A stretch of 63,928 nt of DNA, filler included, from Collodictyon triciliatum (taxonomy: Eukaryota), in the NCBI GenBank assembly GCA_043381765.1. It is 7 parts of 7 records of this genome, joined end to end, with 100 filler letters (N's around TTAATTAATTAA, not from the genome) between each part and the next. Parts side by side here need not be neighbours in the genome. Positions count along the whole stretch, not along the records: positions 41,819 to 48,997 come from JBHJMP010000102.1; 6 more parts are not named here. One strand, given 5' to 3'. How positions within the stretch are numbered: position 1 is the first letter of the stretch; each line of letters begins with the position of its first letter. Below, piece after piece: positions 41,943 through 43,680 of this stretch. Below the pieces are notes generated by a model. That model did not search any database, was not told the origin of the DNA, and saw nothing but the letters and a program-made list of their open reading frames with translations. The position numbers were made by a program, and so were the translations under genes.

Positions 41943-43171
41943 CTACCATTATACCGTGTCATATTACTCTAGATACGGCATGTTTGATAGATCTATTAGT
42001 ATTGTCTGGAAACAGTATTACTGAAGAATATATCAGGATGCAAAGAGACCCTATGGGATAAGTCATTTGAAATGAAGAAGAGGGCTTTTCATCAAACGGA
42101 CTACAATTTTAAATACACAATACAAACAGACGGCTTGGCGGTGTCATTATTATTTGAAAAGAAAGGGATTTCAAATTCCAAATTCCAATTTAGTCAAAAC
42201 CAAGAATATGTCTATATAGATGAACTTTCCAAAGGCCAGTTATCTTTATTAGCGACAAAAAATATTTGGAGTGGATGCAGGAAAGTTTAATTTGGTTTAC
42301 ATGGTGGATGAGACGGGTAAGAAATCACGTTACGCGGCACACCAAAGAAGACATGATAGCAAATCTCTTAAAAATCACAAAATACTCTTGAGCGAGAAAA
42401 AAGAAAAGTACAATGCTTCAGGGATATGCATGGCAACAGGTTTCCAAAGTGCTGTTTCTTTTGTTGCCATGACTTTTGAAGAGAATCAGCAGTTTGAGGC
42501 ATCAAGAGTATCTTTAATCGATTTAGAGACAAAATTGAGTAAACATAATTCATGCACGGTCGATTATGAAAAATTTCGAAAATTCGTATCTATATATGTG
42601 GAAATTGAAACTCCATAATATATAGTTTCAATTTCCACAATATAATCAAGATTCCAAATAGAATTATCCAAATTTTATGAACAAGTAACTTTTCGAAAGA
42701 TGAGATGGAGACAGATTGTTAATACAAAAAGAAGTGAACAGTTGTTTATGGACCGAATTGAAAAAGACATTTTGGCAAGGATGTTGTACTGGTGTATGGG
42801 AACTGGAGCAGAAAATGTCAGAAGAAACATTTGATGCCAACAATTGGAGGAGGATTACAAAAAATATTATCCTATCGTTCTGAAAAAGTTATTGCAGATG
42901 AATTTAGAACATCCAAGATGTGTTGCAACTGCGAAAAAGAACTGGAATATATGAAACCGAAAGGAAATTCAAAAAAGGTGTATAGATGTCTCATATGTAA
43001 AGAATGCAATCGCTCAGAAAGCAAAGTGTATTCTTGATAAGGGACTTTAACAGCGCTGATAATATACTCAACAAAGTTGTTTTAATCCTTCCAAATATGC
43101 ATACACCTTCCTCTAAAAAAAAGGCTGTCAAATCTTTCCTGGCAGCCTTCACCACTACACAACCTCTGTGA
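41942..43171 (+). pseudogene. Fanzor1 (TnpB-derived RuvC nuclease) relic, 5'-truncated, with at least 4 frameshifts and internal insertions
   Basis: Joining frames gives IIPCHITLDT, LWDKSF, IQTDGLAVS, RuvC-I GVDAGKFNL, LSKFYEQVTFRKMRWR...KRSEQ, YGNWS, MPTIG, RuvC-II DEFRTSKMCCNC, CLICKEC and RuvC-III RDFNSADNI. It has no GT-AG intron structure, unlike the neighbouring host genes. Confidence 0.88.
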
Positions 43172-43250
43172 AACAAGTGGTGAGACCTTGGATACCAGCA
43201 CACCAGGTTTACTAATTGAAAGTTGGTATACTCCTAGTAGGAGTACAAAA
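43121..43250 (+). ncRNA. Candidate Fanzor omegaRNA scaffold overlapping the ORF 3' end
   Basis: Dense pairing: AAGGCTGTCA/TGGCAGCCTT (43121-30/43140-49); TCACCACT/AGTGGTGA (43149-56/43176-83); interleaved ACCTTGG/CCAGGT (43185-91/43203-08) with ATACCAGC/GTTGGTAT (43192-99/43222-29); terminal hairpin TACTCCT-AGT-AGGAGTA (43229-45). Position matches known TnpB/Fanzor omegaRNAs. Confidence 0.62.
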
Positions 43251-43680
43251 GTATGGCAAGCCAGAAAAGATAATAGCGAAATCAACAACATACACTTATC
43301 TCTGATTGCTTAGCGACTTTTTATTTATTTATTTATTAATTCTTCCTCTCAGCTTAGAGAATGAAGATACGCCACAGCTTTTGTTCAGGCGATTGATTCA
43401 TACCATTCATTGTTGCTGGGAGTAGAAGCAGCTCGGCAGGTCTTTTATCAAGCATTATCGAAGAAAAAGTGCGTGAAAGTAGGGCCACACCTTGTGAAGG
43501 GGGTCATTTGCACAGTATATTTCTTGCATGAAAGAAAAATACGTACTATAACAATAGGCAATGGGCTGAGTCGGTATGGTATTTGCTTTGTTTTGCTCTT
43601 CACTCTTTTTTAAAGAAAAAAAATTCACTTTTTATGTTTTGTTAATCGTATTCAGTTAGGTCATATCGCGTGAAATGCGG

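Follow-up and report, generated by a model that had tools for sequence, protein, structure and literature searches.

A probable omega RNA scaffold remnant at the 3' end of a dead Fanzor1 copy in Collodictyon triciliatum

Does the 3' end of a broken Fanzor1 gene in Collodictyon triciliatum still carry the scaffold of an omega RNA (ωRNA), and, if it does, which part of the sequence belongs to that scaffold? The locus lies in a window of 63,928 nucleotides (nt), made of seven joined parts of assembly GCA_043381765.1, in which positions 41,819-48,997 come from record JBHJMP010000102.1; all coordinates below count along this window. The original prediction, made from the DNA alone, described an apparently intact ωRNA-like scaffold with a pseudoknot at 43121-43275. 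Our analysis points to a shorter core, 43121-43210, which is probably the remnant of an ωRNA scaffold belonging to a dead Fanzor1 copy.

The gene upstream of this core is a dead Fanzor1. It occupies 41939-43171 on the plus strand as a 5'-truncated pseudogene, as delimited by tblastn with the protein P0001, stop-to-stop frames, Pfam and a family profile. P0001 (648 amino acids, 63% identical) was the sole longer relative among 137 candidates when a 121-amino-acid fragment from the window was used as query. Its residues 249-643 align to 41939-43162 in frames 2/3/1/3/2, with four frame changes and two in-frame stops, and the gene ends at a TGA stop codon at 43169-71. The N-terminal 248 residues (P0001 numbering) are absent, and no intact open reading frame (ORF) was found. 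Three RuvC motifs, GVDAGK, DEFRTSK and RDFNSA, remain legible, as does the CxxC...CxxC zinc finger, all spread over different frames; the finger reads CCNC...CLIC and lies between RuvC-II and RuvC-III. The Pfam family PF07282 scored 19.1 bits on the window copy, under its cut-off of 26.3; P0001 itself obtained no family from the local Pfam scan, and PF26935 is listed for it in the protein database. The family profile was derived from A1, a 38-member protein alignment in which the RuvC triad (D364, E555, D604) and four cysteines (C562, C565, C587, C590) are invariant. When compared with solved structures, it matched SpuFz1 (8gkh, E = 4.3e-62) over profile positions 3-610, nearly its full length, as well as PpFz1 (9cf0, E = 6.9e-60) and GtFz1 (9cer, E = 2.8e-46), and no TnpB or Fanzor2 chain at E <= 0.01. 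The family comprised 120 proteins in an indexed search and 3147 at E <= 0.001 in an exhaustive search, including 537 at E <= 1e-30.

With regard to the region 43121-43275, the two adjacent stem-loops, the interleaved pairing and the terminal hairpin on which the original prediction was built were all found where it had placed them. The pairings are AAGGCTGTC/GGCAGCCTT at 43121-29/43141-49, CACCACT/AGTGGTG at 43150-56/43176-82, ACCTTGG/CCAGGT at 43185-91/43203-08, ATACCAGC/GTTGGTAT at 43192-99/43222-29 (8 base pairs (bp), one G.U) and the 7-bp terminal hairpin at 43229-35/43239-45. The expectation of better folding than in shuffled controls was borne out: the plus strand folded at -48.1 kcal/mol (z = -3.71), an energy reached by none of 200 dinucleotide shuffles, and the minus strand gave z = -3.22, with one shuffle in 200 as low. 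In a sliding 155-nt scan of 42021-44525, the lowest plus-strand energy was that of 43121-43275. Plus-strand z values of -3.0 to -4.2 were obtained in three of the four sliding windows across 42971-43275, the fourth (43071-43225) giving -1.95; elsewhere in the scan, only a palindrome near 42591-42644, described below, reached a comparable z. Far more pairing than in the flanks had been claimed, which is correct for the downstream flank and incorrect for the ORF end directly upstream, where the similarly low sliding z indicates a stretch roughly as structured as 43121-43275 itself. Helices of at least 8 bp with at most one G.U numbered three, against a shuffle mean of 0.47 (P = 0.012). In Rfam, 40000-46000 returned seven matches at E <= 10, all far under the gathering score, and the sole one overlapping the region was PK-repBA (43228-43313; 15.7 bits, gathering score 45).

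The part of this structure that best survives closer inspection lies in its first 90 nt. The plus strand of 43100-43222 folded into three adjacent stem-loops at -32.1 kcal/mol (z = -3.63; none of 200 shuffles as low), and the centroid was identical to the minimum-energy structure. The minus strand of the same stretch gave z = -0.90, so that this fold is significant on the sense strand only, and the tail, 43223-43330, folded no better than chance (z = -1.11). All three stem-loops are on the plus strand. SLa (43121-43149) pairs 43121-30 with 43140-49, includes one G.U, has an energy of -13.6 kcal/mol and is formed by the last codons of the ORF. SLb (43150-43182; -10.1 kcal/mol) spans the stop codon and pairs 43150-56 with 43176-82 and, on the inside, 43158-61 with 43167-70; it begins at the conserved Phe-Thr codons TTCAC, where the hairpin of the relatives described below also begins. 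SLc (43183-43210; -5.2 kcal/mol), which corresponds to the ACCTTGG/CCAGGT stem, pairs 43184-88 with 43205-09 and 43190-91 with 43203-04. The prediction that the structured stretch would overlap the end of the ORF on the same strand thus holds, the stop being at 43169-71 and the stems at 43121-43210.

An alternative long-range closing helix, also on the plus strand, extends over 43132-43271. It pairs 43132-47 with 43255-71 (14 bp, -16.9 kcal/mol), encloses SLb and SLc as a three-way junction and is present in the minimum-energy fold of 43121-43275. This helix persisted when 43217-45 was kept unpaired or removed, and the 126-nt version from which that segment had been removed gave z = -2.69, with one of 300 shuffles as low. 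The closing helix and SLa are mutually exclusive.

Sister copies of the element offer a second view of the same structure. Contigs of four runs (X2, X3 and X10 among them) sharing words with 42000-43600 were aligned to the window; X10 is labelled RNA by guess only and was not used for expression, and among the runs listed as containing the stretch none is recorded as RNA. The numbers of contigs aligned on 42000-43222 were 12, 34, 42 and 203, and their likeness to the window ranged from below 90% to above 99%, which indicates that diverged sister copies exist. Most of them are one base shorter both at 42765 and at 42770, some carry CAAA after 43021, and several skip 42594-42643. Given that these frame defects are lacking in most or some sister contigs, the broken frame is private to the window copy. 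Five differences between sisters and window, among the 40 listed out of 333, fall within 43121-43183: four are in loops, one converts A-U to G.U, and none breaks a pair. Those in SLa are in the loop (43131 and 43132, A>G); those in SLb are 43161 A>G, which is the A-U to G.U change, 43166 in the loop and 43174 in the internal loop. In the closing helix, the sister change 43132 A>G and the X2 equivalent of 43270 A>G would convert A-U to G.U and U-A to U.G, respectively.

The pseudoknot and the terminal hairpin fared differently, as both depend on a 29-nt segment of the plus strand, 43217-43245, which X2 contigs skip. Both the 3' strand of the pseudoknot stem (43222-29) and the entire terminal hairpin (43229-45) fall inside this segment, which is flanked, on inspection of the sequence, by an imperfect direct repeat (TGAAAGTTGG / CAAAAGTATGG). 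The listed sister pieces end at 43208 and 43222 (X2) and at 43148-49 (X3, X10), and loose ends unlike the window follow 43216 in two X2 contigs and 43222 in two X3 contigs (median 114 letters). The X2 loose-end consensus re-aligned to 43246-43270 with a score of 25 (shuffle P = 0.0055; unrelated controls at most 16), which, for a 30-letter consensus of two contigs with an agreement of 0.68, amounts to moderate rather than strong evidence. Given this re-alignment, the X2 sister copies lack 43217-43245, and since their sequence resumes at 43246-70, the break at 43216 is an indel and not necessarily the end of the element. The X3 loose end resembled neither the window (P = 0.99) nor the X2 loose end (P = 0.135) to a significant degree. 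None of the four runs covers 43242-43511, a hole that carries no evidential weight; the argument for the missing segment is made from pieces, loose ends and joints only. The pseudoknot stem and the terminal hairpin, which had been proposed as parts of the scaffold, are therefore not conserved scaffold, since they depend on a segment that is missing from a sister copy. In the window itself, the pseudoknot stem is unused in the minimum-energy fold, in which 43210-17 pairs with 43221-28 instead.

As for the right end of the element, the candidates suggested by the sequence are about 43216-22 and about 43271-75, and the position formerly proposed, 43245-60, received no support. The second candidate closes the plus-strand stretch 43246-43275, where the X2 sister sequence resumes and which may hold the decayed right end; it was delimited by the X2 alignment and by a motif recognized by eye. 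This motif, CCAGAAAAGATAATA, resembles the right-end strand of the relatives, AGAAAAGGTGTAA, in 7 of 11 letters by eye, and no model scores the resemblance. A search for targets of the flanking DNA, also part of the original proposal, was negative: with up to three mismatches allowed, the candidate guides 43223-42, 43246-65 and 43276-95 had no match other than themselves. A run, CTTTTTATTTATTTATTTATT, is located at 43313-43345, some 40 nt beyond the second of these candidates (43275); such T-runs can terminate RNA polymerase III transcripts.

The relatives of this gene carry a well-defined structure at the same place. We scanned, on the basis of alignments, 80 metagenomic and 80 viral loci (L001-L160), many of them in giant-virus genome bins. 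Their nucleotide homology continues past the stop codon for about 80-120 nt and then stops (111 unique 3' regions), and 145 of the 160 loci carry TTTTAAATGTTCAAAGGTGTAA, with up to six mismatches, at this 3' homology end. The conserved element of this very large, mostly giant-virus Fanzor1 family measures about 105-140 nt, covaries strongly and stops sharply on the right at ...AAAGGTGTAA (for example L007:1423-1562). RNAalifold recovered only eight pairs from the mixed-clade alignment A2 because subfamilies were misaligned in it, and A2 was therefore replaced by A3 and A4. The A3 structure, scored on 35 main-clade sequences, has four helices: GTCTT/AAGAC (H1), placed around a hairpin starting at the TTCAC codons (H2), an optional hairpin, and a 12-bp terminal helix at the right end. 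In this structure 97.2% of the cells are paired, compared with 89.4% in shuffles (none of 500 as high) and 45-53% when the partners were slid, and 11 of the 27 pairs have changed on both sides. Many U.G and G.U pairs, valid in the sense RNA only, are found in the relatives' element, and its terminal helix is rich in U.G. Conservation up to a sharp end and covariation, both of which had been anticipated for the locus, were thus found in the 3' element of giant-virus relatives.

Two covariance models, R1 and R2, were built from these relatives, R2 having been rebuilt from all clades. R1 recovered the element in 21 of 25 loci that had been kept out of its training set; its overall recovery was 44 of 48 loci, including the branch nearest to the window (30-46 bits). 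R2 also detected an ORF-less partial copy, L047:1534-1624 (46 bits, E = 9.1e-9), with H2 cut to 2 nt; this ghost-like copy, in a giant-virus contig, has a minus-strand ORF on either side and lies in the intergenic space, 1.3 kilobases upstream of the Fanzor gene of its locus. Upstream of the relatives' genes, a motif near AACTACTTAAAATTATTTTCT occurs about 40-60 nt before the Fanzor ATG (L008, L014, L025, L047, L001, L084, L085) and may be a promoter. The best-scoring hit of the models in the window, 43921-44051, was rejected as noise (14.8 bits, E about 0.04-0.05), its pairs being broken in both outer helices and its local fold giving z = -1.68.

The core in the window and the giant-virus element share their position relative to the ORF end, a hairpin at TTCAC and the form of the 3' strand of the terminal helix, AGAAAAGGT. 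By eye, SLb matches the position of H2, SLa matches the upstream hairpin of L082-type loci, and the terminal strand, AGAAAAGGT in the relatives, reads CCAGAAAAGGT in the X2 sister and CCAGAAAAGAT in the window; we treat these resemblances of SLa, SLb and the terminal strand as leads. In contrast, the window lacks helix H1 (GTCTT/AAGAC), hairpin H5 and the end motif GGTGTAA. One conceivable reading is that the ωRNA was remodelled within a single Fanzor1 clade. In such a scenario, the layout shared by almost all giant-virus relatives (H1/H2, a hairpin enclosed by a long terminal helix, and the end GGTGTAA) would, in the nuclear subfamily to which the window copy belongs, have given way to a compact three-way junction retaining only AGAAAAGGT, and dead copies would keep their pairing because they still feed guides to intact sister proteins. 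We regard this as speculative and rather improbable.

Published Fanzor systems indicate what such a structure might have been. The SpuFz1 ωRNA is described as a 75-nt scaffold at the right end with a variable guide of 14-15 nt beyond it, and Fanzor1 ωRNAs as located at the ORF 3' end and the right end of the element (Saito 2023, PMC10432273). The same account reports 134 ORF-less ghost loci that retain the ωRNA region, ghost ωRNAs that supported SpuFz1 editing, and a discussion by its authors of a trans-acting guide repertoire (PMC10432273). Fanzor1 ωRNAs are elsewhere described as stem-loop 1 (SL1) plus one to three more stem-loops, the scaffold beyond SL1 varying among species and being possibly unconstrained (Xu 2024, PMC11423790). 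Structured, conserved Fanzor RNAs (fRNAs) reaching into the coding region, and 20 extra copies of the fRNA, are described for Chlamydomonas CrFNuc-1 (Jiang 2023, PMC10530073).

The stretch 43121-43275 is most likely the 3' end of a single, decayed member of a multi-copy Fanzor1 transposon and, by origin, DNA that encodes its ωRNA scaffold. By analogy with published Fanzor1 systems, a sense transcript of live copies, spanning the end of the ORF and roughly 100 nt past it, would fold into stem-loops and be bound by the Fanzor1 protein, and it would run past the right end into flanking DNA, which would serve as the guide. In the window copy, the scaffold core would survive as the three stem-loops at 43121-43210 or, alternatively, as the closing helix 43132-47/43255-71 around SLb and SLc. 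The general logic is shared with ISDra2 TnpB, whose pseudoknot-bearing ωRNA scaffold overlaps the end of the nuclease ORF and whose guide lies past the right end.

The resemblance to SpuFz1 consists in the protein family, given the full-length profile match, and in a sense-strand stem-loop structure at the ORF 3' end and right end. The SpuFz1 guide is taken from the flank (PMC10432273), and a counterpart here would follow by analogy. The SpuFz1 scaffold differs in that it lies downstream of the stop codon and inside a 30-nt inverted repeat, whereas the putative scaffold in the window includes the final 50 nt of the ORF and no inverted repeat was detected around it. The ghost Spu-1 loci and the CrFNuc-1 fRNA copies likewise retain a scaffold with no working ORF beside it. 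The ghost loci are described as conserved, bounded by inverted repeats and functional; the locus studied here is a single frameshifted copy with two candidate right ends. Trans-acting guides would be plausible here, and they are already published for ghost loci rather than new. With regard to the pseudoknot, which the original prediction treated as an established feature of these RNAs, it is a feature of TnpB and Cas12, and the SpuFz1 ωRNA lacks one according to Saito 2023 (PMC10432273); the premise thus suits TnpB and not Fanzor1, and the interleaved pairing of the window is not kept in the sister. The word 'pseudoknot' is absent from Xu 2024 (PMC11423790).

Several results weigh against the core being a scaffold remnant. 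R1 gave no match in 43100-43300 at E <= 10 with filters off, the sole match of R2 touching this interval was 43223-43339 (4.4 bits, E = 8.2), and no match of either model overlaps the core at 43121-43210. The relatives' right-end motif is absent downstream of the window ORF, and 43000-43500 has no nucleotide similarity to the 160 loci apart from AT-rich low-complexity matches at 43315-43348. Base-pair covariation is known from the giant-virus relatives and not from this subfamily, and the right end has two candidate positions rather than one. SLa and part of SLb lie within coding sequence, and codon constraints could therefore contribute to the conservation of their stems. Finally, the nearest intact protein found, one of 137 candidates, is only 63% identical, and any intact partner in the same genome is therefore hypothetical.

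Some of these results would also be expected if the region were a relic without RNA function. Its pairing would then stem from coding constraint in the ancestral ORF end, from base composition (the sense strand is rich in C and A) and from indels or small inverted duplications private to a dead transposon copy, with no ωRNA made from exactly these helices now or in the past. The failure of R1 and R2 on the window is consistent with this explanation, as are the location of the terminal hairpin inside the segment missing from the sister copy, the unremarkable tail (43223-43330, z = -1.11), and the fact that the copy is broken in at least four places. Helices of at least 7 bp were, moreover, not significantly enriched (four, against 1.89 in shuffles; P = 0.106). 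Such a relic does not readily explain the z of -3.63 of the core, confined to the sense strand, nor its location precisely where all examined relatives have a covarying element, nor the listed sister differences, which spare the stems. We therefore consider it unlikely, with a minor share of the probability, and retain the scaffold remnant as the probable origin of the core.

It is also conceivable that the palindromes act at the level of DNA, as a subterminal transposon end bound by a transposase in single- or double-stranded form, and not as an RNA scaffold. Both strands of 43121-43275 beat their shuffles, and the region is at or near the right end of the element, which would be consistent with this. 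However, the core is significant on the plus strand only, two of its stems contain G.U pairs, and the terminal helix of the relatives is rich in U.G, which would be unpaired in DNA or on the opposite strand. No terminal inverted repeats were found in 39000-46000, where only low-complexity pairs were detected; this test is a weak one, because the left end is missing from the window copy. A DNA-level end thus appears quite improbable. The scaffold exactly as first drawn, intact and with a functional H-type pseudoknot, a terminal hairpin and an end at 43245-60, is the least credible of all: its interleaved pairing is present and turns up in few shuffles (19 of 1000 with S1 of at least 5 bp and S2 of at least 8 bp, an optimistic figure since these criteria were set post hoc) and its stem 2 (43192-99/43222-29) is a fair duplex of -8.5 kcal/mol, but the 3' strand of stem 2 and the hairpin lie in the 43217-45 segment skipped by X2 contigs, zero nucleotides separate the two 5' strands, a strained geometry as read from the sequence, a competing hairpin occupies the minimum-energy fold, and the SpuFz1 ωRNA is without a pseudoknot (PMC10432273).

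As for the origin of the copy, the ORFs nearby look like exons belonging to a ubiquitin hydrolase, a protein kinase and a Rho-GDI; being flanked by ordinary intron-split eukaryotic genes, the element is a nuclear copy and not a viral insertion. Scans with P0001 as a single protein yielded no relatives in the metagenome and viral collections, the window's own 91-amino-acid fragment had no match in viral contigs, and exact DNA patterns from the window had none in viral contigs or in genome contigs. Self-comparison revealed no second copy of the element within the window. Inside the pseudogene, a near-perfect palindromic insertion of 50 nt at 42594-42643 is private to the window copy, as seen from an inverted self-match (42591-42644) and from the joints of sister contigs. 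One of the two in-frame stops (42616-18) falls within it, the other (42643-45) shares only its first base with it, and its local sliding fold gives z = -5.0. Joints from 42593 to 42644 were found in three X2 and two X10 contigs, and one contig each of X2, X3 and X10 has a joint to 42644 that starts from 42576, 42583 or 42582. The palindrome could be a small hairpin insertion or a footprint resembling that of a miniature inverted-repeat transposable element.

Other features of the window concern its assembly and its neighbouring genes. Six gaps read N44-TTAATTAATTAA-N44, which is a linker with stops in all six frames that joins contigs (41719-41818, 8118-8217, 14499-14598, 20147-20246, 48998-49097, 56129-56228). 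The linker at 41719-41818 lies upstream of the pseudogene, and the contig ends adjoining it overlap by about 100 nt (41620-41718 and 41838-41937 being 99% identical). On the minus strand, 31393-32409 and 37559-38290 hold exon-like frames, both of which match positions 1-82 of the ubiquitin carboxyl-terminal hydrolase domain, which suggests tandem paralogues or a duplicated exon. At 45196-45428, two sub-threshold mir-297 matches (43 and 38 bits; gathering score 90) flank a 100-N gap and may be simple repeats rather than microRNA genes.

What the locus adds to the biology of Fanzors depends on the status of the core. For Fanzors, conserved structured RNAs at the 3' end, guides derived from flanking DNA and scaffolds that work in trans without an ORF have already been published, and the dead copy in itself adds little to them. 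The covariance model of the giant-virus Fanzor1 3' element, with its sharply defined right end, could serve for the annotation of guides in viral metagenomes and perhaps has more practical value than the dead copy. If the core is the scaffold of its subfamily, it would represent a compact candidate ωRNA (about 90-150 nt) in a nuclear lineage of Fanzor1, the closest known protein being only 63% identical, and it would show how far the architecture of the ωRNA can drift inside one protein clade.

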